A DNA stretch of 64,000 bases from a virus. Positions 1 to 58,161 of this stretch are shown here, piece after piece (within the stretch, counting starts at the first letter, position 1; the number at the start of each line of letters is the position of its first letter). The stretch lies in the IMG/VR virus record IMGVR_UViG_3300031555_005249, one strand, 5' to 3'. The translations under genes were made by a program, and so were the position numbers. The notes below the pieces were generated by a model, which was not told where the DNA came from, made no database searches, and saw nothing but the letters and a program-made list of their open reading frames with translations.

Positions 1-506
1 AGACGTGCCAAAGAATTAGCAATTCTTGCAGTATTCATAAGTTTCTTAAGGTCAGCTGGATCTTGTTTAATAGTATGAATAGCCTGATGCGCCATAGAGC
101 GAATAGCTTGGCGCAAATCATAGCGCGCAACTTTTTCTCTCTCGGCAAGAGGAAATAGCTCTTCCCACATATCTTTATAAAGAGGATTGATAATGCAATA
201 GTCAGTAAACATAATCTCAAGAAAGTTGATATTCTGCTTTTTCCAGTTACTTACCATATGCATAATGGTCATACACTCACATACTTCAAAGTCTTTTCCT
301 TCTTCTGTAAAGATATGAAGATGTTTTACATCATAAGGCTTCAGCGCCAAATGATAAAGGTCAGGAATAACAATGCACTTGGTGTCGACATCAGAATCAG
401 GTGTATTAGTATTATAATTCCAAGAACCGTAAAGAAAGACACCAAGAACTGCTTCCTTACCATAGTATTCAATAGCACGAGAATAGTGCTGGTCTAATCT
501 TGACAT
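1..506 (-). CDS. nucleotidyltransferase-fold protein (partial, runs off window start)
   Basis: Own minus-strand translation from ATG at 506-504 (MSRLDQHYSRAIEYYGKEAVLGVFLYGSWNYNTNTPDSDVDTKCIV...) stays open to position 1. Contains the GS-x(n)-DxD nucleotidyltransferase signature (LYGS...DSDVD). Absent from the ORF track because no stop falls inside the window. Confidence 0.55.
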   Translation of the reverse strand, partial: MSRLDQHYSRAIEYYGKEAVLGVFLYGSWNYNTNTPDSDVDTKCIVIPDLYHLALKPYDVKHLHIFTEEGKDFEVCECMTIMHMVSNWKKQNINFLEIMFTDYCIINPLYKDMWEELFPLAEREKVARYDLRQAIRSMAHQAIHTIKQDPADLKKLMNTARIANSLAR

Positions 507-514
507 TACATCTG

Positions 515-811
515 TCATTCTTGTTCTCTCTTTGTAATAGCTATTGCTTCTTCAAGAGCTGCAATAAGTTGCGGACCAAGTTCGGAGCGTTCTTCCTTTT
601 CATCTATCCTTAGAAATTCAAGAAGATCACCCAAGTCAAATACTTCATAGCAATCAGTGCTAATGATAGTCATATCACTAACATTATCATAGTTTTTATC
701 AACTTTGCCAGCTGCTTCTGCGAAAGATTCTGCGCAAACTATTCCTTGATTTTGACGCGTTTCGCCATCAATAAACCAAGTAACTTTATAAAGCCAAAAA
801 TTATCTGTCAT
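515..811 (-). CDS. hypothetical acidic early protein
   Basis: ORF-track ORF, TGA stop, no internal TAG. Consensus promoter immediately upstream at 848-880. Confidence 0.55.
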   Translation of the reverse strand: MTDNFWLYKVTWFIDGETRQNQGIVCAESFAEAAGKVDKNYDNVSDMTIISTDCYEVFDLGDLLEFLRIDEKEERSELGPQLIAALEEAIAITKREQE

Positions 812-847
812 TTCTTTTTTCTCTCTTTCTTTCTTTTGTGTATATAT

Positions 848-880
848 ATATTATATCATAATTTTTTATAAAAATCAATT
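848..880 (-). promoter_or_regulatory. sigma-70-type promoter, TTGATT-17-TATAAT
   Basis: Read on the minus strand: -35 TTGATT (plus aatcaa at 873-878), 17-nt spacer, -10 TATAAT (plus attata at 850-855). AT-rich upstream tract. Confidence 0.6.
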
Positions 881-894
881 AAGAAAGAGAGTTT

Positions 895-1212
895 TTAATC
901 TTCTTTTTTTAACTGGCTATATCTGTTTACAATATAATCATACAAATCAGAGGCAGTAGGACAAAGTTTCTCAAATTCACCTTCATTAAAAAGCCAATGA
1001 CAAATATAATCTCCACAATCTACGACGTTTTCATCTAATCTTGCCAATCCAAGTGGATCAACTTCATTACTTAGCGCCATCGTGAAAGCATCCATCATAT
1101 TATCAATAACAGTTTCGTTAATGCCAAGAATATCAAATGCTTTTGGCACGTCTCCTGTAAAATACTGTTTGATAGTATCTGCCATCGTTATAAAATTTTT
1201 CTTTTCAATCAT
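895..1212 (-). CDS. hypothetical protein
   Basis: ORF-track ORF with TAA stop. Confidence 0.55.
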   Translation of the reverse strand: MIEKKNFITMADTIKQYFTGDVPKAFDILGINETVIDNMMDAFTMALSNEVDPLGLARLDENVVDCGDYICHWLFNEGEFEKLCPTASDLYDYIVNRYSQLKKED

Positions 1213-1224
1213 TTTTCTTACTCC

Positions 1225-1518
1225 TTATACTATAAAGTTATGCTTTCGCGCTTCAGCATTGAGCCAATTTTTAAACTTACGACAATCGCTTATGTTCTTC
1301 CAACAATAGACGAGTACATTACGTTCTTCATTATATTTAATTCTATCTGGTTTAAACTTTTCGATTATCAGTTTAACATAATCAGCAGGAGAGATACCTA
1401 ACATGCGCGCAGGTACCCACCATTCAAAGCGAACACTTGTTACATCAGAGGTATCATTACAATACCACATTCCATTATTTTCCCACTCAGTATAGCGGAG
1501 TAATTGTGCTTTTGCCAT
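1225..1518 (-). CDS. hypothetical protein
   Basis: ORF-track ORF with TAA stop. RBS upstream. Confidence 0.55.
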   Translation of the reverse strand: MAKAQLLRYTEWENNGMWYCNDTSDVTSVRFEWWVPARMLGISPADYVKLIIEKFKPDRIKYNEERNVLVYCWKNISDCRKFKNWLNAEARKHNFIV

Positions 1519-1601
1519 ATAGTATCTCTCCTTTTAAAAATAAATTACAGACCTAAAGCTTTTAGCAAACCTGCAACCTTTTGTTTTTCCCATTCAGAAA
1601 C

Positions 1602-1853
1602 CTAAACTGGTTCTATACGCTCAGGGGTCGGCGCCGTCATCTTTGGCGCGGGAAAATCTCCAGGCATTGCATTATCTGCGCCGCACGTAACGTTTTCTTT
1701 GGCACACGTTAAAACGCATTTAACTTGTAGTGATTGACCATCTTCAATACCACATATTCTTATCTCCTTGGCATCGTTATATAAAAAACTTCCAGGAAAC
1801 ACCTCTAAAATCTTCGCTTGAATTTCTTTTTTTAACTGTTGTCCTTTTGCCAT
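1602..1853 (-). CDS. hypothetical small early protein (MAKGQQLKKEIQAKILEV...)
   Basis: Internal ATG of ORF 1602..1913 preceded by an AGGAG RBS. The stop is TAG and is followed by 19 in-frame sense codons (VSEWEKQKVAGLLKALGL) before a TAA. Confidence 0.5.
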   Translation of the reverse strand: MAKGQQLKKEIQAKILEVFPGSFLYNDAKEIRICGIEDGQSLQVKCVLTCAKENVTCGADNAMPGDFPAPKMTAPTPERIEPV

Positions 1854-1882
1854 ATTATAATTCTCCTTTATTTTTTGTATAA

Positions 1883-1915
1883 TTATTATATCATATTTTT
1901 TATAAAAAATCAATC
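1883..1915 (-). promoter_or_regulatory. sigma-70-type promoter, TTGATT-17-TATAAT
   Basis: Minus strand: -35 from plus aatcaa at 1908-1913, -10 from plus attata at 1885-1890, spacer 17 nt. Confidence 0.6.
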
Positions 1916-2740
1916 AATATTTTTCCAATGAAGTTTTTCTCCTGTAATAGGATGTTTTCCTGCGCTCTTTTTTCTACCTGCTAAATAATCTAAGATACCT
2001 GTTGAAGTTTTGAGTCCCGCCCATGCAGCTGCTTCTTTTCGAGAAGAAAATATTTCTCCAGTTTCAACACACTAAATCTTTTTACTTTGGCACTCTTTAG
2101 CTCTTTGCTTTTGATAATCAGAAGTAGTTTTTCCATACATTGGATTTTTTTCTCCAAGTTTAGCTTGTCGAATTTTTTCTTTAGCTTCTTCGCTATGTCC
2201 TTTTCCTTGTGTAGGAGTTCCATGTTTAGTAATATAGGCTTTACGAGTTTCACTGATACTTTTTCTCCCCTCTTCTGACATTTCCCAGTGTCTAGTTTCC
2301 CGAGCAACTCTTTGTTTTTCAATATACTCCGGATCCTACCACTTATTTTTCATTAATTGTGACATCTTTTCACGATGAGAATCTTCTTGCCAAAGAGCTT
2401 TAGCATGCTCACTTAGTTTTTGTCTAGTGTCATTTGAAACATTTCTATTTAAACCGCCTGCTTGAATATTATATCCTTTTTCTTTATTAGTTGAATTATA
2501 ATGTTTTATCCAATAAGCTTCTCGTTCATTAGCCTAGTTTAAAGTTAAATTTGTTTCTAAAATAATATGCTCAAACTAGTCCCAGCCATATTTATTAATT
2601 GCGTGAAAAAAATGAGGACAGTTTTCATATCGTTTTCCATTGTCTCCCCAACGATATTCAGGTTTCTAATTTGTCTATCCAATATAAACCTTACCATTAA
2701 CCTTATTTTTGTGCATATAAATACAATAATTATTTGTCAT
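1910..2740 (-). CDS. GIY-YIG homing endonuclease (with NUMOD3-like repeat and C-terminal HTH), TAG-recoded
   Basis: Own minus-strand translation from ATG at 2740-2738 (RBS AAAGGAG): MTNNYCIYMHKNKVNGKVYIG[TAG]TN[TAG]KPEYRWGDNGKRYENCPHFFHAINKYGWD[TAG]FEHIILETNLTLN[TAG]ANEREAYWIKHYNSTNKEKGYNIQAGG...KNKW[TAG]DPEY...GKGHSEEAKEKIRQAKLGEKNPMYGKT...SKKI[TAG]CVETGEIFSSRKEAAAWAG...WKNID then TGA. Six in-frame TAG and no TAA/TGA across 276 codons. GIY-YIG catalytic motif, NUMOD3-like GHSEEAKEKI and an I-TevI-like C-terminal DNA-binding region are all present. ORF-track piece 2072..2281 lies in this frame. Confidence 0.7.
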
Positions 2741-2858
2741 AAATTTTCTCCTTTAATATGTTTATTTAAGCCTTATTGACTTCATTAATATATTATTTTT
2801 GTATTAAATAATTTATATAACTTTAACCTGAATTTTTTCACTATTCAACTACTTTAAA

Positions 2859-3680
2859 TCAATTATTCTTTTTCTTTTTAATGACAAGATTCTTTTGTTT
2901 TAGCTTTTCACTGATATTAAGAACTCGATCACAGATAGAACAATGTTCGCCTTTCATACATTTTCGTCCACAACTTTTACGCAATTGCGCAAACCCTGGT
3001 ACGATGCGACTAGAGTCAAAAGATAAATCAAAATCAAGAATAATTTGATTTAAATCTCCAAGCCAAACTCCTTTTTTATAGATTCTATATAAAATCTCTT
3101 GTCTATTGGTTGGGCCCCAGAATTCAAGAGTCGAAATGCAATCTTCATATTCTACTACATCTTCTGGACGAATAAAGAATTTTTTGAGCGCCGGTCCAGA
3201 TTGAATGCTTCCTTGAGCTACATTTGGAAATGCTCTAATCTGCACCCCATAATTGTCACATACCTTCTTTGCGCGCTTCAGATCAAAGCAAATATCTTCT
3301 GCAAGATAAACTTCCGAAACACCTTGTTCTACAAGATAATGTAGTTGGTCAAAATTGACTACTGTATCTCCAGTAAAATAAGGTATCTCTAAACTTTGTA
3401 TACATTCTACCATCATTTCAGACATTACAGTAAAATATCCTACTTCTTTAAAACATACTGTAAAACCTAGCTCAGGATATTTTTGATGAATTGCATTAAG
3501 TTTTTTCCATTCTTTTGCTTCATAGAAATCTTGAAGATTTGTTATCCTTAAAATAATTTTCTTGTTTGAATACTTTTGCATAAAAGGAACAAGCTCTTTA
3601 TCTTGTCTATCATAAAGAATCGCAATTTCATCAAAGGCATTTAAGTTTATTTTATTGGAAAATAAAGCACAATATTTCAT
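2859..3680 (-). CDS. hypothetical protein with C-terminal Cys cluster (CGRKCMKGEHCSICDR)
   Basis: 273-codon ORF, TGA stop, no internal TAG. C-terminal Cx3Cx5Cx2C putative metal site. Confidence 0.55.
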   Translation of the reverse strand: MKYCALFSNKINLNAFDEIAILYDRQDKELVPFMQKYSNKKIILRITNLQDFYEAKEWKKLNAIHQKYPELGFTVCFKEVGYFTVMSEMMVECIQSLEIPYFTGDTVVNFDQLHYLVEQGVSEVYLAEDICFDLKRAKKVCDNYGVQIRAFPNVAQGSIQSGPALKKFFIRPEDVVEYEDCISTLEFWGPTNRQEILYRIYKKGVWLGDLNQIILDFDLSFDSSRIVPGFAQLRKSCGRKCMKGEHCSICDRVLNISEKLKQKNLVIKKKKNN

Positions 3681-3703
3681 ATTATTAATCTCCTTTTACG
3701 AGT

Positions 3704-3742
3704 AAAAAACAGGCGGCGATAATCAATCCCGCCGCCTGTTTT
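3704..3742 (-). terminator. rho-independent terminator for gene 3777..4166
   Basis: Hairpin AACAGGCGGCG...CGCCGCCTGTT followed on the minus strand by a T-tract. Confidence 0.5.
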
Positions 3743-3776
3743 AAGTCTTAAGTTCAAATATTACGTTCTATTGCTA

Positions 3777-4166
3777 TTACTCAGCATCAGTATCAACGGG
3801 AAGAGTGTAAGCTGTCTTTGTCTTACCATCCTCAGTCTTTACCTTGCACTTTGCAATTGCGCCAGACTCAACAAGGTTGTTAAGCTTAGCCTGAATCTTA
3901 TGAACAGTAAGCTCGCCGCTCTCGTCATTCATTGCAACAAGAATGTCGTCTCTTGTCTGAGGCTCGTTAGTAATTACTGCAAAGACGTTGCCTTGAAGCT
4001 CGTCGCCTTCAGCTCTCTTAGCGGCTGCGCGCTCTCTGTTCTTTGCATTTTTCTTGTCAAGCTTTGCAAGCTCGTTCTCTGCGTACTCTACGAATTCTGC
4101 GTTGTCTGCATAAAGCTCCTTCCACTCGGTGAGCTTCATAGCTGTTGTTCTCTTTGTGTCTGCCAT
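3777..4166 (-). CDS. small early protein, member of a 3-paralog family (with 12369..12779 and 13351..13755)
   Basis: ORF-track ORF with TAA stop. Shares length (~130 aa) and layout with two other early proteins: N-terminal helix, central K/R/A-rich segment, C-terminal KV.T..K.YTL-like motif. Confidence 0.55.
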   Translation of the reverse strand: MADTKRTTAMKLTEWKELYADNAEFVEYAENELAKLDKKNAKNRERAAAKRAEGDELQGNVFAVITNEPQTRDDILVAMNDESGELTVHKIQAKLNNLVESGAIAKCKVKTEDGKTKTAYTLPVDTDAE

Positions 4167-4213
4167 TGTTTTTTTCTCCTTAAAAATTAAATTATTTTTT
4201 TTATTTGGTGTTA

Positions 4214-4246
4214 TTATTATACCAAAAATTTTTTATTTTTTCAACT
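4214..4246 (-). promoter_or_regulatory. sigma-70-type promoter, TTGAAA-17-TATAAT
   Basis: Minus strand: -35 from plus tttcaa at 4239-4244, -10 from plus attata at 4216-4221, spacer 17. Confidence 0.5.
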
Positions 4247-4278
4247 TTGGGTATATTGCCCACGAATAATTTTTATTA

Positions 4279-4539
4279 TTACTCGTTTCTGCTTTTCCCA
4301 TTCTTTACATTTATATTATACCAAAAATTTTTGGATTTTTCAAGTGAAGCCTTTGAACTAACTTTAAATCCTCGTAATACAAGAAATATGAATCCTGTAA
4401 TTAAACAGCTTGTGATAGTACCTAGAACTGCGATCCCTATACCTGCGGCTATTGGCGCAGTAGGAACAGCTATGATACATGCTGCTAGTCCAAGCCAAAA
4501 CATTGCGATAGTTATTAAATAGATAATTGCAACTGCCAT
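4279..4539 (-). CDS. small membrane protein (2 predicted TM helices)
   Basis: ORF-track ORF with strong RBS GGAGG. Hydrophobic N-terminal 60 aa. The C-terminal coding overlaps the tandem promoter region. Confidence 0.45.
   Translation of the reverse strand: MAVAIIYLITIAMFWLGLAACIIAVPTAPIAAGIGIAVLGTITSCLITGFIFLVLRGFKVSSKASLEKSKNFWYNINVKNGKSRNE
4313..4345 (-). promoter_or_regulatory. second (tandem) promoter, TTGAAA-17-TATAAT
   Basis: Same architecture ~100 bp upstream of the previous promoter: plus tttcaa at 4338-4343 and attata at 4315-4320. Confidence 0.45.
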
Positions 4540-4556
4540 TTTTTAACCTCCTTTCT

Positions 4557-5423
4557 TTACCATTCTCTATATCCAGAGTAATCGAAAAGGATTGGCGCCC
4601 CATTAAGATATCCTATATTTGCGGCTCTTAAATCTCCTATTCGATATTCATCAAGGAAGTCATATAGTCTTTTTAGTTCCTCTTGTCCATAACAAGCAAT
4701 AAAATCTGCTACCCATATATCGTTAAAAGCGATAATATCTAGCTCCTGACAAACTTTATCTGATATTTTCTTTTTCTTTTTATAGTCATCACTATTGTAA
4801 TCAATTCCCATTTCATCAAGAGGAATACATCTTTGCTGATAATAAATAGGTGTTTCATCTATCATACCAAGGAAACCTTCTTCAGCGAAATAGGCGCCCA
4901 AACCTGCCTCAAGCGCGTGTTCATAAAGTATAGTTTCCAGCGCGCAATAGTTCCAAGGTTCAATATATTGTTCTTCATCATGAGGCAGTTCGATATCATT
5001 TGCGTATTCAAGATCTGTATACCATATCCTATCTCCTTCATCTGGCTCAGGATATTTGGTATCATAGTCTTTCATTTTTTCGTCCATTTTTTGACGAGCA
5101 AGTTGTATATCACCGTTACATTTGATAAGCATTTGTTGCGCCCATTCTTCATAATAGTCATCTCTTGCTGATTCCCAATCACAATAGGCATCGTCATAAC
5201 TATCCTGCTCAAATACGCAATGAAAAGGAATTTTAATAACATAAGGCTCACCTTTAATAAGCAATACAGCTTTCGATATTCCTCCATCAAGAGAAAATTC
5301 AAAAGGCGGTTGAGCTTCACGTATAGGATCTTCAAGATAAGCCTCTGTATCTTTTAAGTTAAATCCAGAATCAAGTACTGGGATTGTATTTTTTAAGAAA
5401 TTTAGTATTTCTTGTTTTGTCAT
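4557..5423 (-). CDS. hypothetical acidic early protein (288 aa)
   Basis: ORF-track ORF with TAA stop, no TAG, D/E-rich. Promoter at 5461-5493. Confidence 0.55.
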   Translation of the reverse strand: MTKQEILNFLKNTIPVLDSGFNLKDTEAYLEDPIREAQPPFEFSLDGGISKAVLLIKGEPYVIKIPFHCVFEQDSYDDAYCDWESARDDYYEEWAQQMLIKCNGDIQLARQKMDEKMKDYDTKYPEPDEGDRIWYTDLEYANDIELPHDEEQYIEPWNYCALETILYEHALEAGLGAYFAEEGFLGMIDETPIYYQQRCIPLDEMGIDYNSDDYKKKKKISDKVCQELDIIAFNDIWVADFIACYGQEELKRLYDFLDEYRIGDLRAANIGYLNGAPILFDYSGYREW

Positions 5424-5460
5424 TTATATATTTATTTCCTCTCTGATTTTTTCTTATACT

Positions 5461-5493
5461 TAATTATAACATAAATTAAATAAAAAATCAATA
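5461..5493 (-). promoter_or_regulatory. sigma-70-type promoter, TTGATT-17-TATAAT
   Basis: Plus aatcaa at 5486-5491 and attata at 5463-5468, spacer 17. Confidence 0.55.
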
Positions 5494-5524
5494 AAAAACA
5501 GAGCGGCGCGAATGCGTCGCTCTG
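5493..5524 (-). terminator. rho-independent terminator after gene 5563..5781
   Basis: Hairpin CAGAGCG-N12-CGCTCTG with an A-tract on plus, which reads as a T-tract after the hairpin on minus. Confidence 0.5.
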
Positions 5525-5562
5525 AGAGGCGTAAAGTGATTATTCGGCGCCGTCATAAACTG

Positions 5563-5781
5563 TTATCGTTGGTTTATCTTTTTCGATACCTGTTGAATAA
5601 TATATTCCTGTTCTGATTCAAATCCATCATCGAGCAATCCATACTGCTTCATAACCTCGTCAAAAATTTTTTTATCTGCAATATCGACATCATCGTAATA
5701 TAAATCTACAAGATAATTAATTGCTTTTTCAACATTTTCATAATGCTGAGCTATTGCTATATTTAAAGGATTAAAGTTCAT
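5563..5781 (-). CDS. hypothetical small protein
   Basis: ORF-track ORF with TAA stop. Its start overlaps the stop of the upstream gene (ATGAACTTTAA). Confidence 0.5.
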   Translation of the reverse strand: MNFNPLNIAIAQHYENVEKAINYLVDLYYDDVDIADKKIFDEVMKQYGLLDDGFESEQEYIIQQVSKKINQR

Positions 5782-6013
5782 TAGGCGTAACCTCCTCTAT
5801 GGTATAATAACAAGCATCATAGATTTCGTCTGAATTCACGTCGGGAAGTTTAGCAAAAATGACATCTGCGTGCATATCAAGATAAGCTCCAACACACTCT
5901 TCTGCGCAGTATTCCATTTCCTCTTTATTTGTAATATCGACGCGGTCACAGATAAATTCTTCGATAAGTCCATGTAGATAAGAATTTCCAATAGTAACTT
6001 TAATAGCGTTCAT
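5771..6013 (-). CDS. hypothetical small protein (MNAIKVTIGNSYLHG...)
   Basis: Internal ATG of ORF 5771..6058 with a GAGAGGAAA RBS. TAA stop. Confidence 0.5.
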   Translation of the reverse strand: MNAIKVTIGNSYLHGLIEEFICDRVDITNKEEMEYCAEECVGAYLDMHADVIFAKLPDVNSDEIYDACYYTIEEVTPNEL

Positions 6014-6121: not shown

Positions 6122-6154
6122 ATTTGACTTTATTTTAATTTTATATTATAATTA
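6122..6154 (+). promoter_or_regulatory. plus-strand sigma-70-type promoter, TTGACT-17-TATAAT (divergent from 6047-6079)
   Basis: ttgact at 6124-6129, tataat at 6147-6152, spacer 17. Drives the nested plus-strand gene block. Confidence 0.55.
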
Positions 6155-6187: not shown

Positions 6188-6667
6188 GTGGAAATAATTG
6201 GATTAATTATTTTAATAGCTGGATTAATATTTATTGGATTTGACTATGGACGTATGTTAATTAAGAATCGGCGCCTATAGGCAAAATTAGGTGATGATTC
6301 GGCGCCTTACACACCTACAAGGAATATTATGGTAATGGATGAATATTGCCCTTATTTAGTTAAATTAACGACACTATGTATTAAAGCTCATGGAGATGCT
6401 AATATTAAAATTACAAAATATGATAGTAGTCAAGAGAATGTTGGTGTGATTAAAGTGTATTTTGATAATGATGATGAACTATTGGTTTATTAGTATGGTA
6501 AAGCAAAGATTAAAGAGTTAACAAATAGAGAAAAGAAGAATTATGCTAATAAAATTTTTCTTGACTATAAGTTACCAGAGGGTGCGGCCGGCGCAGTAAT
6601 AAAAGATTTAGGATTAATGAATCACATGGTTTATTTCGGCTTTTGTGATGAAAGGAGTGTAAAATGA
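6188..6667 (+). CDS. hypothetical protein with N-terminal TM segment, TAG-recoded (2 in-frame TAG)
   Basis: GTG start after an AAAAGGAGA RBS. Frame stays open across 159 codons with only two TAG codons, no TAA/TGA. Terminal TGA overlaps the ATG of 6664 (ATGA). Confidence 0.4.
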
Positions 6668-7071
6668 GTAATTGGGCAAAAACAGGTGAAGCTTATTTTG
6701 GAGATTCTTTTGATAGAAAAATAACTCTTGGACCTGGGGAATTGAGTTTTAGCGCTAATAATTGCGTGATAGATCAAGATGCTTTATCTTCTATAGTAGG
6801 ATATGATAGTGCTAATACTTATGCAATGGCAACTAGTTATGAAAAGCCAATAAGTATAGGCTACTGTGGAGATATAAGTGCTAAGGCAGATTCTGTTAGC
6901 GCTTTACAAGTGGATATTTCAGCAAGAGTAGATCAGCTTGAAGAGAAGCTTGATACAGTAATGGCGCGCATTGATGAGTTAAAGCAGTCTGTTTCACGTA
7001 CTTCAAGATTGCGTTCGTTATTAAGAACGTTGCATTATAATAGCGAAGTTGAAAGTGGCGCCAACTTTTGA
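6664..7071 (+). CDS. hypothetical protein
   Basis: ORF-track ORF, RBS GAAAGGAG, no TAG. Confidence 0.55.
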   Translation: MSNWAKTGEAYFGDSFDRKITLGPGELSFSANNCVIDQDALSSIVGYDSANTYAMATSYEKPISIGYCGDISAKADSVSALQVDISARVDQLEEKLDTVMARIDELKQSVSRTSRLRSLLRTLHYNSEVESGANF

Positions 7072-7328
7072 TGTAAGCTGCTAAGGGTGCAGATTGGCGC
7101 ATGAACCAACACGATTTTGCTACGATTTTAATTGAACTTGCTTTTGATAAAAGGCGGCATGACAACAGATTGTTGCAAAACTATTAAAGATGATGCGATA
7201 AGGAAAATATAGAAAAGAGTATATCGTCGAAAAATTGGCAAATTAAGGTAGTATTATGGAAAAAATTTTGGACAAAAATAGATACAATTACTACCTTAAT
7301 TTTTATATAATAGTGAAAGGAGTTAGTA

Positions 7329-7526
7329 ATGACTCGTGAAGAAATAATATTTTAGTTAAAGGAGATGCGCGCAAAAGGTTATACGTATAAGTTGATTGCG
7401 AAAGAGGCAAAATTAGATAATCCTGATTAGCTTTATAAGTTTATCAATAGAGATGCTCCTGCTATTTGGGTGAAGCAGCAATTAGAGAACTATTTGCGCC
7501 GAGTAAACGGAAATGGGTCAAATTAA
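7329..7526 (+). CDS. small HTH-like protein, TAG-recoded (2 TAG)
   Basis: RBS AAAGGAG. Translation MTREEIIF[TAG]LKEMRAKGYTYKLIAKEAKLDNPD[TAG]LYKFINRDAPAIWVKQQLENYLRRVNGNGSN, TAA stop. Confidence 0.4.
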
Positions 7527-7551
7527 AGAAAGAGTGATTTACACTCGAAAA

Positions 7552-7689
7552 ATGGCGTACGAATTACGCAAGTTGGGTTTTAAGATTATTAGAGTGATAC
7601 CTGATGAGAAGAAACCTTATTTTGATAATTATGTATTTGAAGATAGTCTTGAGTTACAAGAGGCTATGCGCAAATTATCTTAGGTTTAA
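7552..7689 (+). CDS. small hypothetical protein (1 TAG before TAA)
   Basis: Translation MAYELRKLGFKIIRVIPDEKKPYFDNYVFEDSLELQEAMRKLS[TAG]V then TAA. Weak RBS, so tentative. Confidence 0.3.
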
Positions 7690-7714
7690 AATAAGGAATC
7701 GGAGGTATCGGATA

Positions 7715-8398
7715 ATGATTAAAGAATTTAAGAATAATCCTGTAAGAGATTTTGGTAACGTATATCAGACTATGTTGTCACAGATAAAAAAGAGATATGA
7801 GAAAGATCCTGTACAAGCTGGAGAATTAGCTATTAGTTTTATTGAATATGTATTAACAGGTGATATTAGTAGTGACGATGATATTATTGAAGGCTTTGTT
7901 GAAGGATATAAGGTTACGACTAAAAAGAATCAAGATAAATATGATGCTAAGGTCGCTGCAACAAGAGACGCGCTAAAGCCAATTGCAGATATGTATAATA
8001 GGGGTATGACACAGGCGGCGATTGCGCGTGAGCTAGGTGTTCAGCCGCCCGCTATTTCAAAGAAAATGTCTACCATTCGTACACAGTTTCCAGAGTTGTT
8101 AGATAATGAAGGAAAATTAAAGAAAGTTTCCGAAAATTCTGGAAATAATGGAAAGTTTCCAAAAAATGAGGAAAGTATAGAAAAAGTTTCTGAAAATTCT
8201 GGAAATATTAAGAAAGAAGAAGAAAGTTTAGAAACGTTTCCAAGTTTCCAAAGTTTCCACAATAATAATAACTATAATAACAATAATAACTAGAATAATA
8301 ATAATGAAGTTTCCATTTCGCCTCGCGGCGAGTCAGGGCTTCGCCCCGACACCCCTGCGGCTTCGCCGATAAAGAAGATTGGAGGGTTTGAGTTTTGA
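7715..8398 (+). CDS. HTH DNA-binding protein (sigma-region-4-like motif GMTQAAIARELGVQPPAISKKM) with repeat-rich C-terminus; 1 in-frame TAG
   Basis: RBS GGAGGT. Internal ATG of ORF 7604..8293, continuing through the TAG at 8291 to a TGA at 8396-8398. Contains GTTTCC iteron-like repeats at the DNA level (see repeat feature). Confidence 0.5.
8120..8260. repeat. iteron-like array, 6 copies of GTTTCC(A/T) followed by an AT-rich AATAATAAC tract
   Basis: GTTTCC at about 8126, 8155, 8186 (GTTTCT), 8236, 8244 and 8253. The last three are tandem with ~8.5-bp periodicity. The AT-rich low-complexity stretch spans 8261-8310. Confidence 0.4.
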
Positions 8399-8790
8399 GG
8401 GGAGTATATGTAATTGCTGATGATATGGGAAGAGTTTACTATGTGGGACAGAGTGAATAGTTGGAAAATAGAACATGGGGACATTTAGCTAAAATAAAAC
8501 AAGATGAGAATAAATATAAGAAAAATAAATTATATTGGATATTGGGTAGATTGAATGATTTAAAAGTTGGGCTTCATTGTTATTTATTAGAAGAGTATCC
8601 GTCATGGAATAGAATCGATATTAAGACAAGAGAAAAAGAAAATATTCGATTGTTAAAACCTGTATTAAATACTTAGGTTCCTACTGATTGCATTTGTTAT
8701 ATGAAGAATATTTGGAATGCGGTAACAGCGGCAGTTCAGGCAGATGAAAATGGAAGATGGGATTTTAAAGGATGTAGGAAAATATGGTGA
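8395..8790 (+). CDS. small GIY-YIG nuclease-family protein, TAG-recoded (2 TAG)
   Basis: TTG start overlapping the upstream TGA. Translation ..RGVYVIADDMGRVYYVGQSE[TAG]LENRTWGHLAKIKQDENKYKKNKLYWILGRL... carries the GIY-YIG signature (GVYVI...VYYVGQS...R...H). ORF-track piece 8461..8676 lies in this frame. TGA stop. Confidence 0.5.
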
Positions 8791-8877
8791 AGATGTGGAG
8801 AAATTATAGTAGAGTGGAGAGTTGTCCTGCGACCGAATCCAGAACCACTTCCACTCATCTCTCGTCTTCGTTATCCC

Positions 8878-8910
8878 TATTGATTTATAATAAAATATAT
8901 GATATAATAA
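8878..8910 (+). promoter_or_regulatory. plus-strand sigma-70-type promoter, TTGATT-17-TATAAT
   Basis: ttgatt at 8880-8885, tataat at 8903-8908, spacer 17. Confidence 0.55.
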
Positions 8911-8942
8911 TTATAGAAAATATAAGAAAGGAAATAATACCA

Positions 8943-9314
8943 ATGAATATTGAAGATATGATCATGAATGGTGCATCTGAAGAAGAGATTGCAGAAGCTA
9001 TAGACCAGATTCGCGCCAAGAGAACCTTGAAAATGGAAGAAGAGCGTCAGGCGCGCGAATCTCAAAAGAAGAAAGATGAAGAGCAGACCGCGAAAGAGGC
9101 GCTTAAGGCAGAGGCTCGCGCGCATTTCATCAATGCTGTACTTGCATATAGTGAGGCTTTTGACCTTTTGGAAGAGGGAGAGAGCTGGACTGAAGAAGAT
9201 CTAAAAGAGGTGGAAGAGTACCTTATTCAGATTGAAGGAATAATTCCTATGTATGCTAAGATGATGAAGAAGAAAAAGGAATTCGGATTTGGAGATCTTT
9301 TTGGATTGATATAA
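8943..9314 (+). CDS. hypothetical E/K-rich coiled-coil protein
   Basis: Internal ATG (MNIEDMIMNGASEEE...) of ORF 8784..9314 with RBS AAGGAAATAATACCAATG. TAA stop, no TAG. Confidence 0.5.
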   Translation: MNIEDMIMNGASEEEIAEAIDQIRAKRTLKMEEERQARESQKKKDEEQTAKEALKAEARAHFINAVLAYSEAFDLLEEGESWTEEDLKEVEEYLIQIEGIIPMYAKMMKKKKEFGFGDLFGLI

Positions 9315-9606
9315 GCGCCGGTCCAGGTTATAGAAGTATAAATATAGAGAATAGAGCGTTGGGTAAAACCCGGCGCTCTTATTGTTTTACCTCTTGACGC
9401 GACGAAGGCGCATTGGCGCCGAGGAGCGAAAGTTAAAAATTTTTCAAAAGTAGATAATTGTATTACCTTAATTTTAATATAACAATGACAAAGAAATACA
9501 TTGTCACTAAGAAAGATTGTAACGAATTATTAAACTACTTAATTTTATAGTCATTATAAAAGTCATTACAATCTTTCCAATACTAAAAGAAAGGAGATGA
9601 ATTATA

Positions 9607-10314
9607 GTGAAACTTGTTGAAGGTAAAATAACTTTAGCTAATTTGGCTACTTGGCTAGGAGTATCTGCAGGCACCCTGCGCAATAATAAAAGTAAGTATT
9701 TAAATATTTTAGCTCGCTATTGCCGATATCATGAAGAAGGAACTACCAAAAAGACTCTTTATATTGATGAAGTATACGAAGCAGAATATTCGGCGCTATA
9801 GGGTCCAAAACCTTATCAAAGAGTAAAAGAGTTAACAAGAGAGGGTTGGAGCGCAGAAGGGCTAGATAGTTGTGCTCTTGTTGCAAGTCGTAATTTTCCT
9901 ATTCTATAGCAAGAGGGATACACAATTACAGAAAATACCAATTATAATTATACTTGTTAGAGCAGAACGGAACTTTGGGGCAGTCCTATGAAGCGCACAA
10001 ATGGTGAGCTTGGCTATTGTCGTTATGAGTATTGTAAAATTGGACCTTAGGGCAAGCTTGTTCCGCTTAATGAGGAAGAATAGAAGATTAAGCGCTAGAT
10101 CACAGAGAAATACTTTGGTAATTTAGAAGATTTTACTCTTGGGATAGCTGATGATATTAAAACTGGTAAGATTACTGCGGAAGAGGCTGGTATTGCATTA
10201 GCTAATTTAGGTAGTCATGGAGAATATTTAGCTTGGAAGAATGAACTTGAGGCTAGACTAGGTTGTAAGATTTATAAAGGAACAAGAATACATAATGAAG
10301 AGAGTGCGTTTTAA
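9607..10314 (+). CDS. HTH-domain protein (N-terminal ITLANLATWLGVSAGTL), TAG-recoded (about 7 TAG)
   Basis: GTG start after an AAGGAG RBS. ORF-track piece 9607..9801 continues in frame through TAG codons to a TAA at 10312-10314. No TAA/TGA inside the 236 codons. Confidence 0.45.
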
Positions 10315-13169: not shown

Positions 13170-13350
13170 TATCCTCGAGGTTGACCATTCTCGCTTTCTC
13201 GCCACTCCTTGCGCATAGGGGACTTTGGTTTTAATGGTCTGCAAAGGCGTGTGATTTGAACACACATCTGTTGGAAACGAAACCAACTGTTCTTCCATTA
13301 AACTACCCTTTGTTATGTATGAGGGGCGCATTTGCGCCCCTGTGCCTCAC

Positions 13351-22778: not shown

Positions 22779-23951
22779 ATGGATACATTACAAACTTTAG
22801 ACGACCTTTTGTCTGATGAGGATTTAGATATTGAAGACTCTTCTGAACAAGAGGAAGAAAATATAGAAGAGAAAATTATCACTGAAGATATTGCGCAAAC
22901 TATAAAATTAGATTATAAGTTAGCTACCTGCGAAGAGCGCTCGGCGTTGGTTAATAAGATTATAGCCCAAACCCCTGCCGCCTCTTTAACAAATCGTTAT
23001 TTAGAAATTTTAGGCGATTATATTATGGGAGGTATCACAAAAGAAGAACGTAAATCGCACCTATACCTTACTGACAATAGAATGATTACTGTTGCAAGGC
23101 GCGAAACGTCTTTTGAAGGTTTGGCAGAAAAATTTGAAAATGGAGAAGATGGTATTTATAATTTAATGACAAATGATAAAAATATTATCTTTGCACCAAA
23201 AAATACAATCACTGAAGAAGATATAGAAAATGTTCCTGGTCTTAAGCAATTGCGCGAGGCTATTATTCAAATTGAAGAGGAGGGGAAACGTGCTATAGGA
23301 AAGCGCAAATACCTTCTCAAAAAGCAACTCATAGAAATGCGTAAAGACCAATATATCTTAAAGAATTCATATTAGGCCCCCATGGTTTGCACTCCTTGTG
23401 CAAAAGGAGCAAATAAAATTGATTTAAGTGAAAAAAAATATGTAGATGAAAATGGAGATCCACAAAGCACAGGTTTAATTTCTTTTTTTAAACCAGAGCA
23501 TATTCAAGCAATTTTAAATAATTATAATGCTTTAAAAATAGAGACTAAAGGTAAATATTCTAGTGACTTTTTTTATTTGATGGAAGATTTTGATAAATTA
23601 TTACATAAGGCATTAGATAATTATCCTATGTATTTTGATATTGTAAAAATGAAAGTAAATGGAAAAACAAATATTGAAATTCAAAAAATGTTAAAAGAAA
23701 AACATAATACAAGTTTTACTGTGTAGTACATTTCCAGTCTATGGTGTAAAAAAATTCCTAAAATTATAGCTGAGAAAGAACAGCATGACTTCTTAATCTG
23801 GTATTATCGTAATGAACAAAAAGGCCCATGGAAGCGTTGCTCTTGTTGTAAAGAATTTAAACCAGCTAATTCGCGCTTTTTCTCTAAGAATCGCACAAGT
23901 AAAGATGGATTTTATAGCATTTGCAAAATGTGCCGCAATAAGAAAAAATAA
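22779..23951 (+). CDS. hypothetical protein with C-terminal zinc ribbon (CSCC...CKMC), TAG-recoded (2 TAG)
   Basis: ORF-track ORFs 22779..23375 and 23382..23726 share a frame and are separated only by TAG. The frame continues past a second TAG (23724) to a TAA at 23949. RBS GAAAGGAG. Confidence 0.55.
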
Positions 23952-26997: not shown

Positions 26998-27070
26998 TAA
27001 AAATTAGGACAATTTTAAATAAATTATAACTTATAATTTTTATATAACAATAGTAAAGGAGTGAAGAGAT

Positions 27071-27427
27071 ATGAAAGCAAGTCGAGGCGAAATTAAAATT
27101 TGTGATATTTTAACCGAGGCTGGCGTCTCTTTTACAGAAGAGTATTCATTTTCCGATCTTGTTGGTTATACTAAAACCCCTTTAAGATTTGATTTTGCAG
27201 TATTAGACGATGATGGAGAGGTTGATTTTTTAATTGAATATTAGGGTATTCAACATTATGAACCTAAGTCTAAATTTGGCGGAGTGGCTGGATTGCGCCA
27301 ATAGCAATACTACGATATGTTAAAAAGGGAGTATTGTAAAAAACATAATATTCCCTTGGTTTTAATTCCTTATTATGATGAAGGAAGAATAAACTACGAT
27401 TATATCTTTAAGGCCGCTGGCTATTGA
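27071..27427 (+). CDS. small PD-(D/E)XK / DUF559-like endonuclease (homing-endonuclease-like), 3 TAG
   Basis: MKASRGEIKICDILTEAGVSFTEEYSFSDLVGYTKTPLRFDFAVLDDDGEVDFLIEY[TAG]GIQHYEPKS... resembles the D..(D/E)xK core of Vsr/DUF559-type endonucleases. Inserted between terminase and portal genes. TGA stop. Confidence 0.45.
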
Positions 27428-29091: not shown

Positions 29092-30453
29092 ATGCACAAA
29101 TCAGTTGCTACGATAAACTCTCCTGAGTTTATCAATTTAAAACCACTTGATATTAATCCTTTAATGTCTGCATGTGAAATTAAAGTTTTGTATGTTGGCG
29201 AAAATCGTAATAGGTCATATATAACCAAGGATGTTGCAACCGAAATGGCTAAGACATTACGAGGTGCGCCTATTGTAGGTTATTATAAAGAAGACATTGG
29301 AGACTTTAGAGACCACGGACAAGAAGTTATTATTGATAACGATGGGATTAAATTTAATTGCAAAACTGTTCCTTATGGTTTTGTAGCTCCAGATGCAAAG
29401 GTATGGTTTAAAGAATTTGAAGATACTAATGACTTTGGAGAAACTATTTTGAGAGAATATCTTATGACTACAGGATATTTGTGGACTGGCCAATTTGAGG
29501 AATGTAAATCTGCTGTTGAGGGCGATGGCAAGCCGCACTCGATGGAATTAGATGAAGCAACCGTTAAAGGACATTGGGAAACAAATACCAAAGGCATGGA
29601 TTTCTTTATTATAAATGACGCAATTTTTTCAAAACTTTGCATTTTGGGCGACGATGTTGAACCTTGTTTTGAAGGCTCAAGCATAAAAGCACCAAATGTT
29701 AGTGCGTCTTTTACGAAAGTAGATGATACTTTCAGACAAACATTATTTACTATGATGCAGGATTTAAAGACTGCATTAGGAGGAGGTCAGCAAATGATAG
29801 ACGCTATCGTCGATAATGCTGTAGTTGAAGAGCCTATTGTAGCGCCTGCGGCAGAACCTGCTGCGGAACCTATTATCGAGCCTGAAACTCCAGTAGAACC
29901 TTCTTTTGCTGCATCACAAGAGCCAGCTGTTGATACACCTGCAGTGGTTGAAGAGCCTGCGGCAGAACCTGTCGTAAATCCTGAAGACCCTGCTCCTGTA
30001 GATCCTGAACCGGCGCCCGCGCCTTCAATAGAAGAGCAGTTTACTGCACTTCAGCAGGAACTTGAGGAAGAAAGAACTGCACACTCTGCGCTTGCAGAAC
30101 AGTATGCGCTACTTCAATCTCAGTATAATACCCTTTCAGCTGAGCACCTAGAACTTGTTGAATTTAAAAGACAAAGTGACGATGCAAAGAAAGACGAAAT
30201 GATTGGAAAATTCTATATGCTTAGCGATGAAGATAAGGCAGAGGTCTTATTTAATAAAGCTAATTACACTGTAGAAGAAATTGAAGAAAAACTTTCTGTA
30301 ATTTGTTTCAGAAAAAAGGTCAATTTTGAATTAGAGGATAACTCTAAAAATAATAATAAAGTAGAGCAACCACCTGTGACATTTAATATGTCCAACCCTG
30401 GTGCTTCAATGCCTGCTTGGTTACAAGCAGTTGAAAATGCAAAAAATAAATAA
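29092..30453 (+). CDS. prohead protease (HK97-family) fused to scaffold domain
   Basis: N-terminal region is HK97-type prohead-protease-like. The C-terminal half is Pro/Ala/Glu-rich followed by a coiled coil (EEQFTALQQELEEERTAHSALAEQYALLQSQYNTLSAEHLELVEF). No TAG across 453 codons. RBS GAGGAGAGGAG. Confidence 0.6.
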   Translation: MHKSVATINSPEFINLKPLDINPLMSACEIKVLYVGENRNRSYITKDVATEMAKTLRGAPIVGYYKEDIGDFRDHGQEVIIDNDGIKFNCKTVPYGFVAPDAKVWFKEFEDTNDFGETILREYLMTTGYLWTGQFEECKSAVEGDGKPHSMELDEATVKGHWETNTKGMDFFIINDAIFSKLCILGDDVEPCFEGSSIKAPNVSASFTKVDDTFRQTLFTMMQDLKTALGGGQQMIDAIVDNAVVEEPIVAPAAEPAAEPIIEPETPVEPSFAASQEPAVDTPAVVEEPAAEPVVNPEDPAPVDPEPAPAPSIEEQFTALQQELEEERTAHSALAEQYALLQSQYNTLSAEHLELVEFKRQSDDAKKDEMIGKFYMLSDEDKAEVLFNKANYTVEEIEEKLSVICFRKKVNFELEDNSKNNNKVEQPPVTFNMSNPGASMPAWLQAVENAKNK

Positions 30454-31016: not shown

Positions 31017-32069
31017 ATGGCATTAGATAGAAATAGTTTATTTACATTAGGTCACCGCGTTGCTGACGCTAATCCTTCTGCTCCCGTTGCTTATTCTTTT
31101 GAGGATAAGAGTTATAGCTATGCAGATTTAAATAATGCTTTCCGTGCAGAGCTTAAGGATCTTATTGGTACATATGCTCTTTGGAGAGAGAACCATAATA
31201 CAGTTTATACTCTTATGGAGGAAATTATCACTGATAAGCTTCCTGCTAAAGTAATGCAACAATATGGCGCATTTGCTGAAGTTAAGACATATCGTCAAGG
31301 CGAAAAGCCTGTATTCGTTCAGAGAATTACCGAGGCTTCCAAGAGACGTGCAAAGCAGTTTATTGCAATGCCTGCAGGTCTTGCTGGTCGTTATGAGGTC
31401 TTTAAGCTTGATGGACGTAGCTACGAAGTAAAGACTTCTGCAATGGGTGCAGCATGTCAGATCGCTATTGAGGAATTCCTTGATGGTAGAATTGATATGG
31501 CTACAGTTCTTGATATTGTTATGGAAGGTATGGATGATAAGATCTATGCTGAAATCGCAAATGTTCTTATCGCTGCTGTTGAGAATATTCAAGATGCTAA
31601 CAAGGTTCTTGCTGATAGCTTCGTTGAGGCTGAAATGGACGCTCTTCTTGCAGTTGCGGACACTTATGGAAACGGTAGATCGACGATTTATTGTACATTT
31701 GAGTTTGCTTCTCAAATGCTTCCTGACAATGCTTGGGATCAAGGAAGAATGTCTGATAGTATGAAGGATGAGTACTGGAGAAATGGTCGTCTTGCAAACT
31801 ACAAGAACCATCAAGTCATCGTTCTTCGTCAATCTTTTGTTGATGAAACAAATACTGAAAAGGTTATCGATCCTTCATATGCTTGGATTATTCCTGGCGG
31901 CGCTGAGAAGCCAATCAAGATCGCTTTCGAAGGTGATACAATGATTAAAGAAGAAGATAATGAAGACTGGTCTAAGAGCATCCACTTCTATAAGAAGGTT
32001 GGCGTTGCGGCTATGATCAACAATGATATCTGTGTTTATAAGAACAGATCTCTTAAGAAAACCAGATAA
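31017..32069 (+). CDS. major capsid protein (HK97-fold candidate)
   Basis: 350-codon ORF directly after protease/scaffold and decoration genes. No TAG. RBS AAGGGAGGGA. A terminator hairpin follows. Confidence 0.6.
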   Translation: MALDRNSLFTLGHRVADANPSAPVAYSFEDKSYSYADLNNAFRAELKDLIGTYALWRENHNTVYTLMEEIITDKLPAKVMQQYGAFAEVKTYRQGEKPVFVQRITEASKRRAKQFIAMPAGLAGRYEVFKLDGRSYEVKTSAMGAACQIAIEEFLDGRIDMATVLDIVMEGMDDKIYAEIANVLIAAVENIQDANKVLADSFVEAEMDALLAVADTYGNGRSTIYCTFEFASQMLPDNAWDQGRMSDSMKDEYWRNGRLANYKNHQVIVLRQSFVDETNTEKVIDPSYAWIIPGGAEKPIKIAFEGDTMIKEEDNEDWSKSIHFYKKVGVAAMINNDICVYKNRSLKKTR

Positions 32070-35131: not shown

Positions 35132-35879
35132 TGAGTTGCTCTTACTCTCTGGAGCAGATATTCCTTTTGTCGAAGGCACGGTAACAATTCATTAGCCTAC
35201 GATATATGAAATCTCTTTAATTGGAGAGGAAACATTATTTACTGGTTGTGAGTTGTTGAGGTTTTCAAAAGATATGTTAAATTCTGAGGACAAAATTAAA
35301 TTATCTAATTATACTGATTTTAATATATTAATGTCAATAATGAATGATAAAAGTGGGTCAATGATATTTAATATATCTTGTGCTAAATAGGTGTTAGATT
35401 TAATCTTTCCCTTTTATACTGTTGAATTGGCGCCCAATGCGATACTGCTTGTTGACGCTAATGATAAATTTACACAATGCGGTGAAATTAATGATACTAA
35501 TTTCCTTGTATTTAAAGATGTTCTGACTCAAATGTTTTGTTTGAAAAGGGCATCGTCTACACAAGATTATAATGTGTAGGGTGAGTTAGCGAAGAAAATT
35601 GCAGACAAATTTAAACGCAGACAAAAATAGCTTGCCGAACTATCTGCGAAACCAAACAAGATTGCAATTTTTAGTAGATATATTTCAATATTAACAGTTG
35701 GAGAGCATAAAGATATGAATTCTTTTATGAAATACACTGTTTATCAATTATTTGATGAGTTTTAGCGCTATGAACTTAAAACGGGATATGATATTTATTT
35801 CAAAGCTCGTACGGCTGGCGCTAAAGACATAAAAGAGCCTGAAGATTGGATGAAAGATCTCCATAATGAAGGCGCTTAA
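35118..35879 (+). CDS. hypothetical tail-region protein, TAG-recoded (about 5 TAG)
   Basis: Own translation from ATG 35118 (MALNNELLLLSGADIPFVEGTVTIH[TAG]PTIYEISLIGEETLF...) passes through ORF 35391..35579 to a TAA at 35877. The start overlaps the upstream gene. Confidence 0.4.
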
Positions 35880-35914: not shown

Positions 35915-36838
35915 ATGCAATTTGGTATTAGAGAAATATGCGACGTCGTATTTAAGGCTAAAAATGCTGGAAACCTTGGTTCCTTTAAGTATGTTGCAGG
36001 ACAGCCTGTTCTTTATATTGACAGCGCAAAAACTTCCACAATGGAAGGCGCAGCTACCACTGTTTATGCTCAGGGTGGTAAGGGTAATGCGCGTTTGATC
36101 GCTTGGGAAGGTGAGAGAACTCTTACTTTCACGGTTGAAGACGCACTTCTTTCTGAGCTTGGATTTGCTATTCTTTCTGGCGCTGGTCTTTTAAAGGCTG
36201 GTGAAAAAGTTGGAGAGAATACTCATGTTGCTCATGTTCATTCTACTTCTAGAACTGTTATTGGTACAGATGGAAAAATCGATCTTAGTGATGTTCTCGG
36301 TGAGAATGAAACTATCGATGAAGCTTCTCCTGTTTTTGTTATGCTAATGGAGCATGGTTCGCTTAAGAATATTCTTACTGGTTGCACTATTGCAGAAGAT
36401 GGTAAATCAATTACTGGACCCATCCAAATGGACGGTGAGACGGCGGTTGAAGCAGATGTCTTTGTTGACTTCTATATTCAAAAGACAGCTGGTGTTACAG
36501 AAATGACTATTGATATGGAGAACTTTGCAGGTTATTATTATGTTGAAGCATCTACTCTCTTTAGACGTCAATCTGACGGTAGAGACTTACCTGCTGAGCT
36601 TATTTTCCCGAACGTTAAAATTCAATCTAACTTCACATTCTCAATGGCTTCTACTGGTGATCCTTCTACATTTACATTCACAATGGATGCAATGCCTGGA
36701 TACACTCGTTTTGATCGTTCTAAGAAAGTTCTTTGCGCAATGCAAGTTGTTGACGAAGATACTAGCGATGACAAGGATCCTGATAAAGATTCTGCTGATT
36801 TGATAGCAGATGCAGAAAAACTTTATCCTATTGCTTAA
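35915..36838 (+). CDS. major tail protein (candidate)
   Basis: 307-codon ORF, no TAG, strong RBS AAGGAGG, acidic C-terminus. A strong terminator follows. Position upstream of chaperone and tape-measure genes. Confidence 0.5.
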   Translation: MQFGIREICDVVFKAKNAGNLGSFKYVAGQPVLYIDSAKTSTMEGAATTVYAQGGKGNARLIAWEGERTLTFTVEDALLSELGFAILSGAGLLKAGEKVGENTHVAHVHSTSRTVIGTDGKIDLSDVLGENETIDEASPVFVMLMEHGSLKNILTGCTIAEDGKSITGPIQMDGETAVEADVFVDFYIQKTAGVTEMTIDMENFAGYYYVEASTLFRRQSDGRDLPAELIFPNVKIQSNFTFSMASTGDPSTFTFTMDAMPGYTRFDRSKKVLCAMQVVDEDTSDDKDPDKDSADLIADAEKLYPIA

Positions 36839-48811: not shown

Positions 48812-48850
48812 TAAGGCGGCTAAGGGCAACTTTAGCCGCCTTTGGGCATT
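48812..48850 (+). terminator. terminator hairpin after tape-measure gene
   Basis: GGCGGCTAA-gggcaacttt-TTAGCCGCC. Confidence 0.45.
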
Positions 48851-48915
48851 TCTATTTAATTTATTTATTATAATTTTTATATTTTTAGAAGAGAAAAAAG
48901 GAGGTATAATAATTT

Positions 48916-58053: not shown

Positions 58054-58090
58054 AAGGCGCTAATAGTTAGCGCCTTTCTTTTTTTGGTCA
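58054..58090 (+). terminator. rho-independent terminator
   Basis: AAAGGCGCTAA-tagt-TAGCGCCTTT followed by CTTTTTTTGG. Confidence 0.55.
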
Positions 58091-58161
58091 TTTTAAGTTA
58101 ATCTCATTTAATGAATTTTAATATATAATTAGAGAATTACTGGGAAAGGAGGAATTCCTAC

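Follow-up and report, generated by a model that had tools for sequence, protein, structure and literature searches.

A predicted mobile GIY-YIG homing endonuclease gene, rich in TAG codons read as glutamine, in the early operon of a recoded tailed phage

Comparison with homing endonuclease I-TevI, encoded in the td intron of phage T4, is of particular use in considering the gene described here, which has the same catalytic fold, with the Tyr/Tyr/Arg/Glu/Asn residues conserved, and is predicted to share the arrangement of an N-terminal nuclease, an extended NUMOD3 linker and a small C-terminal DNA-binding module. The synthesis of I-TevI is also delayed, through late promoters and sequestration of the ribosome-binding site. 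The present gene differs in being free-standing between two genes rather than in an intron, in lacking the Cys4 zinc-finger cluster and in having a leader without an RBS-sequestering structure; any delay here would stem from amber codons. The Seg and Mob genes of T4-like phages are closer in placement, being intergenic GIY-YIG genes of variable presence that have their own upstream control region and travel with an adjacent gene, but they belong to another phage group, are detectably related to our gene only in the GIY-YIG domain and are not written in a recoded genome.

The idea of a delayed, recoded endonuclease is not new. Borges et al. (bioRxiv 10.1101/2021.08.26.457843) proposed it for the TGA-recoded endonuclease of a group I intron that lies within an early gene of Agate phages, with the nuclease made only late. 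Both cases concern an early-region homing endonuclease of a recoded gut phage that is enriched in the reassigned stop codon; theirs is intron-encoded and involves TGA read as Trp, while ours involves TAG read as Gln and a free-standing cassette. The nearest described relative of our phage, though a distant one, is phAss-1, whose portal protein is 39% identical, with no match at the nucleotide level. It is assigned to the "Caudoviricetes code 15 clade" and reads TAG as Gln by means of a tRNA-Sup-CTA (PMC10607447; OQ749652). The two phages are alike in that TAG is recoded to Gln in their virion genes, their genomes measure about 135 kb, and small genes in a long operon lead into a tRNA array that shares the operon's strand; in phAss-1 this array holds the tRNA-Sup-CTA. 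In text searches of the phAss-1 paper (PMC10607447), neither GIY-YIG nor any treatment of recoded endonucleases turned up.

The DNA analyzed here is a stretch of 64,000 nucleotides from IMG/VR record IMGVR_UViG_3300031555_005249 (hereafter the window). It is a segment of a tailed phage that depends on TAG readthrough, with 8 TAGs in the gene for terminase, 7 in that for portal and 82 in a single gene of 3142 codons. The features of the endonuclease locus, in the direction of transcription, are:

2859-3680, minus strand: 273-aa gene flanking the cassette upstream, free of TAG, function unassigned
2857-2862, minus strand: leftover TTGATT, a -35 hexamer that overlaps the TGA with which the 273-aa gene ends; it marks the left insertion junction
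2741-2858, minus strand: cassette leader, 118 nt, with a near-invariant block AAATTCAGGTTAAAGTTATATAA (2813-2835) and the ribosome-binding site GGAG (2748-2751)
1910-2740, minus strand: free-standing homing endonuclease gene of the GIY-YIG/NUMOD3 type, with 276 codons, among them six sense TAGs, and a TGA stop
2666-2677, minus strand: TAG codons 22 (2675-2677) and 25 (2666-2668), within the motif YIG-Q-T-N-Q
2072-2578, minus strand: the four other sense TAGs, at codons 55 (2576-2578), 69 (2534-2536), 135 (2336-2338) and 223 (2072-2074)
1885-1913, minus strand: sigma70-type promoter of the 102-aa gene, with -35 TTGATT (1908-1913), a 17-nt spacer and a TG-extended -10 TATAAT (1885-1890)
1545-1853, minus strand: downstream flanking gene, 102 aa, with one sense TAG at codon 84 (1602-1604)

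The endonuclease frame runs on the minus strand from an ATG at 2740 through 276 sense positions to a TGA at 1912-1910, with TAG at codons 22, 25, 55, 69, 135 and 223 (top coordinates 2677, 2668, 2578, 2536, 2338 and 2074). No TAA or TGA occurs before the terminal TGA, though about 15 would be expected in a random 276-codon frame at 35% G+C (P for none, 1.5e-7), while TAG is not avoided, the six observed comparing with a chance expectation of 5.6. The original prediction, made by a model from the letters and a list of open reading frames, had described the region as debris in the standard code, and ORF calling with that code does leave it in fragments, as do the JGI calls for L010, L012 and L013 among its relatives. 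It had also named in-frame TAA or TGA codons as what would speak against it, and proposed that reading through the six TAGs gives a complete endonuclease with GIY-YIG, NUMOD3 and helix-turn-helix (HTH) parts. The frame and the first two of these parts are borne out; the HTH is without Pfam support. Translated with TAG as Q, the product scores above the Pfam gathering cut-offs both for GIY-YIG (PF01541, 36.0 bits against 22.6) and for NUMOD3 (PF07460, 38.6 bits against 20.4, residues 179-208), and it matches PHROG 314, "homing endonuclease", with E = 7e-37.

In the alignment with I-TevI that had been suggested as a check (1LN0/1MK0, phmmer E = 2e-4), all five catalytic residues correspond, Y8, Y19, R30, E74 and N91 matching I-TevI Y6, Y17, R27, E75 and N90, and they are invariant in 59 homologs. 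An AlphaFold model built with these homologs has a mean pLDDT of 90.9, and its N-terminal domain superimposes in Foldseek on the I-TevI catalytic domain (1mk0) with a TM score of 0.78, an rmsd of 2.5 A and 34-36% identity. The last 55 residues are modeled as a strand-strand-helix-helix-strand module (helices 234-240 and 247-253), which in structure comes closest to the small DNA-binding domain 8b6e_A (E = 0.024, TM 0.82); the I-TevI DNA-binding domain is absent among the structural matches of the module, and Pfam gives no match at E <= 1 for residues 203-276. The module is putatively HTH-like, as judged from its predicted fold. A zinc finger of the I-TevI type is absent, with only scattered cysteines (C6, C41, C216 and C224) and no CxxC pairs, which sets the gene apart from I-TevI itself but not from the wider GIY-YIG family. 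With dN/dS of 0.10-0.25 against its orthologs, the gene is intact and under purifying selection. An intron-encoded endonuclease was ruled out, there being no Rfam intron and the flanking genes being separate and intact at sites that lack the cassette.

Megablast of window positions 1-6000 against a phage collection gave no match, nor did the 102-aa gene in that collection, and the 273-aa gene had no confirmed match in viral contigs. A search of viral and metagenome contigs with the endonuclease returned relatives at 56% identity or less only, because the tblastn step used for confirmation breaks at TAG; orthologs were found by exact-protein look-ups instead. The database homologs with Q at the TAG columns had themselves been called with TAG as Q, which makes that comparison circular, and the test was therefore redone at the codon level with nine sequences: four orthologs from recoded genomes, two orthologs free of TAG (L181 and L182), whose exact translation needs only the standard code, and three homologs that come from cultured phages. 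Opposite the TAG columns these have Q 42 times, followed by E (18), N (12) and K (10); scored with BLOSUM62, the same columns sum to 214 for Q, 128 for E and 67 for K. At columns 22 and 25 the TAG-free orthologs L181, L182 and FA70 have CAA or CAG. The proposal that TAG stands for Gln is thus upheld by ortholog codons that are not TAG, and by these alignments TAG is decoded as Gln in the source phage. The further statement that the TAGs fall at family Gln positions holds for five of the six sites, but not for codon 55, where the family normally has Asn. As to the host, the promoters of the window (TTGAxx-17-TGnTATAAT) and its strong GGAG ribosome-binding sites suggest a member of the Firmicutes.

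The endonuclease stands out from its surroundings in how often TAG is used among all Gln codons:

endonuclease, window: 6/16 (37.5%)
other nine genes of the operon, 515-6013: 1/49 (Fisher p = 5.8e-4 vs. the endonuclease)
late block, window: 198/589 (33.6%; p = 0.79 vs. the endonuclease)
endonuclease orthologs in L005, L006 and L179: 16/59
syntenic early genes in L005, L006 and L179: 1/111 (p = 1.2e-7 vs. the endonuclease orthologs)

The TAG sites of the orthologs are at codons 25 and 252 in L005 and 40, 64, 93, 128, 143 and 192 in L006, with eight in L179; since the positions differ, it is the presence of TAG and not its position that is conserved. The operon's other GIY-YIG cassettes are likewise TAG-rich, with 4, 4 and 9 TAGs, while HNH cassettes preceded by the bipartite motif described below have none. 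By the measure of Borges et al., a reassigned stop that is rare in early and common in late genes, the window gives 1/49 vs. 198/589, with 1545-1853 and 6188-6667 as exceptions. The picture of TAG-free neighbors in an otherwise standard-code early block is accordingly right for most of the operon, but has to be qualified for the 102-aa gene, with its one TAG, and for the divergent block at 6188-10314, which uses TAG as well. The TAG in the 102-aa gene is real, because the 18-residue tail beyond it is conserved. Without suppression this gene would give a truncated product of 83 residues, and 0/6 of its orthologs have a TAG in the gene. Since both the 102-aa gene and the sigma70-driven gene at 6188-6667 carry TAGs, the use of TAG extends beyond the late genes.

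The latter gene (6188-6667, plus strand) merits attention in its own right. It lies behind a near-consensus promoter, TTGACT-17-TATAAT, at 6124-6152, and has sense TAGs at codons 32 and 103; in 4/4 aligned orthologs the promoter is kept, along with at least one TAG within codons 27-43, at sites that shift, just past a hydrophobic N-terminus. As an example of a conserved amber gate acting on an early transcript, this gene may be cleaner than the endonuclease. The divergent block also contains a small GIY-YIG ORF (8395-8790, plus strand; 131 aa, Pfam 29.8 bits) with the catalytic domain only and 2 TAGs. Among the late structural genes, several large ones (29092-30453, 31017-32069, 35915-36838, 55558-56424 and 56519-58033, all plus strand) have no TAG while their neighbors are TAG-rich, as might be expected if TAG were avoided in those virion proteins that are expressed most strongly.

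The junctions of the cassette show how it is fitted between its neighbors. As predicted, the TGA stop of the endonuclease (1910-1912) lies inside the -35 box TTGATT (1913-1908) of the next promoter, that of the 102-aa gene; in the window and in L005 the last codons, ATT GAT TGA, form the -35, correctly spaced at 17 nt. At the other edge is the leftover hexamer, the same one that at empty sites serves as the -35 of the 102-aa gene promoter (L014, L016 and L017); there the stop of the 273-aa gene overlaps the -35 TTGATT of a TG-extended promoter, or lies 6 nt before it. In L006 and L179 the entire promoter, the 5' UTR and the old ribosome-binding site stand upstream of the cassette, with 11-23 nt from the endonuclease to the next gene. 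Insertion precisely between a gene and its promoter thus describes the lineage of the window and L005 but not that of L006 and L179, where the cassette lies downstream of that promoter. The two arrangements are consistent with an ancestral duplication of the promoter, with opposite copies then being lost.

The leader block is nearly invariant in orthologs whose proteins are 67-82% identical, and is found only upstream of the endonuclease gene; its exact 20-mer is unique in the window, which ruled it out as a general late-promoter element. A structured leader with I-TevI-like sequestration of the ribosome-binding site was ruled out as well, no RNA structure being found in the leader (z = +0.85, no conserved pairs). 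No terminator was found between the 273-aa gene and the cassette, which makes readthrough transcription plausible. Farther upstream, between the 129-aa and 273-aa genes (3704-3739, minus strand), there is a GC-rich hairpin, ACAGGCGGCG...CGCCGCCTGT, followed by a T-run; its 11-nt loop contains TTGATT. There is no obvious promoter before the start of the 273-aa gene, so that this gene and the endonuclease may depend on readthrough of the terminator.

Comparison with related genomes, which had also been suggested as a check, found the cassette in some and missing from others. The order 273-aa gene, endonuclease, 102-aa gene is seen in the window, in L001-L004 (98-100% identical), in L005, in L006 and in L179, while in L014/L015, L016 and L017/L018 only 57-64 nt separate the two flanking genes. 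Among the carriers the endonuclease is 66-82% identical, vs. 37-59% for the upstream genes; between the window and L005 the figures are 82% and 44-54%, and the synonymous difference pS is 0.53 for the endonuclease as against 0.73-0.74 for both flanks. The endonuclease tree agrees with that of the 102-aa gene but not with those of the upstream genes, and by its 129-aa and 273-aa genes the window falls with the cassette-free L014 and L016 (77-80% and 60-62% identical, respectively). This discordance puts a recombination breakpoint at the cassette's left edge, with the 102-aa gene traveling along; even in the distant L181 and L182 the ortholog is directly upstream of a homolog of the 102-aa gene. 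A gradient of co-conversion was dropped as evidence, as identity falls downstream in comparisons with cassette-free genomes too. Several further nuclease cassettes lie dispersed in the operon and the tRNA array. Together the gene orders and trees argue that the endonuclease is most probably a free-standing mobile cassette. Another variable early-operon insert, TAG-rich and in reverse orientation, lies between the 129-aa and 273-aa orthologs of L005 (7995-8924, minus strand) and L179 (4173-4901, minus strand); it has 5-6 TAGs and is similar to window 27071-27427.

Lining up the ortholog leaders with the upstream regions of TAG-bearing window genes gave a bipartite motif, GGnCA-N25-TTTTwATATA. 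With at most one mismatch it has 5 matches in the window, vs. 0.20 expected, and 0/100 shuffles reached 5; the matches show a sharp spacing peak at 25 nt:

7270-7309, plus strand: motif match
27007-27046, plus strand: motif match
35288-35327, plus strand: motif match
48844-48883, plus strand: motif match
58086-58125, plus strand: motif match

Four of the five stand 20-37 nt before TAG-bearing genes; weaker copies occur at 9442, 39286, 54213 and 62408. The motif is present without mismatch 28-48 nt upstream of the endonuclease orthologs in L006, L179, L181 and L182, and precedes other inserted nuclease genes in relatives, including TAG-free HNH genes. The cassette leader of the window has a degenerate version (GGTTA at 2824-2828 and AAATAATATA at 2789-2798), with the same four mismatches as the leader copy in L005. 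We regard the motif as a candidate phage-specific, perhaps late, promoter. Since it is found at distant orthologs and also precedes late structural genes, it suggests that the cassette was ancestrally a late transcription unit. The product of 22779-23951, which lies behind a consensus sigma70 promoter and matches a PHROG labeled "sigma factor" only, a label that Pfam does not confirm, could be the reader of this motif.

A CUA suppressor tRNA is found neither in the 64-kb window nor in the 3.6-kb extension provided by L183, which is 100% identical to window 1-2981 and reaches 3.6 kb past the left edge (together 67.6 kb of a genome of about 135 kb). The extension includes a tRNA array on the operon strand (L183 3246-6087), starting some 265 nt to the left of window position 1; the first eight tRNAs in it are of ordinary types (Arg-TCT, Arg-ACG, Leu-CAA, Trp-CCA, Ile-GAT, Glu-TTC, Glu-CTC and Ile-TAT). 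In relatives the tRNAs of the array are interrupted by GIY-YIG and HNH cassettes, and in phAss-1, with its equivalent layout, the Sup-CTA lies deep within the array. We infer that the amber suppressor is encoded in the unsampled part of the genome. As the array lies downstream of the early operon on the same strand, the suppressor could be made early, which would shorten any delay. The only tRNA within the window (13241-13312, minus strand; Rfam 44.6 bits) has an 8-nt anticodon loop, TTTCGTTT, and no CTA. ARAGORN calls it as a tRNA with a four-base anticodon, and similar four-base-anticodon tRNAs (agtt, ttgg) occur in L005 (15844-15918) and L179 (10708-10785). An extra Rfam tRNA in L016 was ruled out as a suppressor, being a tRNA-Trp.

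We think it likely that the endonuclease is functional and mobile, and that its synthesis requires amber suppression and is delayed for that reason. The host ribosomes would stop at codon 22 or 25, both of which lie upstream of the catalytic residues R30, E74 and N91 and are the first to block translation if TAG is a stop. Full-length nuclease would be made only when the phage amber-suppressor tRNA(Gln) became active, and it would presumably then cut cassette-free alleles near the junction of the 273-aa and 102-aa genes or within the 102-aa gene. We infer this timing of nuclease synthesis from the sequence. Against it count the absence of a CUA suppressor from the 67.6 kb covered, the TAGs carried by genes outside the late block, the four mismatches in the window's copy of the motif and the TAG-free HNH cassettes that have the motif too. 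With the motif in degenerate form and no terminator ahead of the cassette in the window, the TAG block may be the main control.

It is also conceivable, though rather unlikely in our estimate, that the TAGs are simply tolerated, in that a selfish element not needed early has had CAG drift to TAG unopposed and any delay is a by-product. The endonuclease's TAG share matches that of the late block (37.5% vs. 33.6%, p = 0.79), its six TAGs are about the 5.6 expected, the TAG positions turn over freely between orthologs, and the TAG-free orthologs of L181 and L182, whose loci are well read in the standard code, accord with a gain of TAGs after entry into recoded genomes. However, all four of the recoded-genome orthologs keep one TAG or more before the catalytic core (the first at codon 22, 25, 40 or 23), and every GIY-YIG cassette in these operons is TAG-rich. 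Such tolerance would in any case dispute the purpose only and not the mechanism, the same pattern being predicted by both. We consider it less probable still that the gene has been domesticated, being no longer mobile and used by the phage, for example, in the late cutting of competing phage or host DNA. Its strong purifying selection, its standing as the best-conserved gene of the neighborhood and its place upstream of the 102-aa family, kept even in L181 and L182, would accord with such a role, but close relatives differ in its presence, its tree conflicts with the upstream flank, which points to recent movement, and several other nuclease cassettes are scattered in the same operon and the tRNA array.

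That the gene is dead and decaying and its TAGs are genuine nonsense mutations, as its splitting by standard-code gene callers might suggest, is scarcely credible when TAG alone interrupts the frame (P = 1.5e-7 for no TAA or TGA), dN/dS is 0.10-0.25, all the catalytic residues are kept and full-length orthologs have their TAGs elsewhere; moreover, the essential terminase and portal genes of this phage carry 7-8 TAGs and the 3142-codon gene 82. Suppression-dependent synthesis of a working nuclease remains our preferred reading.

To the case of Borges et al. the window adds another code and another type of element, evidence of mobility from empty sites, replication across genomes and a promoter-like motif that late genes have as well. 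As to annotation, such cassettes are shredded when genes are called in the standard code, as happened in the JGI calls. A broader and distinctly tentative reading, which we do not expect to hold, is that GIY-YIG cassettes landing in the early operons of this clade systematically adopt the late dialect, motif promoter and amber codons together, so that the code acts as both a timer and a one-way barrier. If true, selfish nucleases would be kept silent while the early genes run, and TAG-free copies could pass from standard-code to recoded phages, while TAG-laden copies would not be functional on return. The locus offers a compact natural test case for stop-codon reassignment as a translational timer, with a contrast that repeats in four diverged genomes; and since the gene is mobile, so that TAG-free and TAG-laden versions of it coexist, code-dependent expression and transfer between codes are directly testable.
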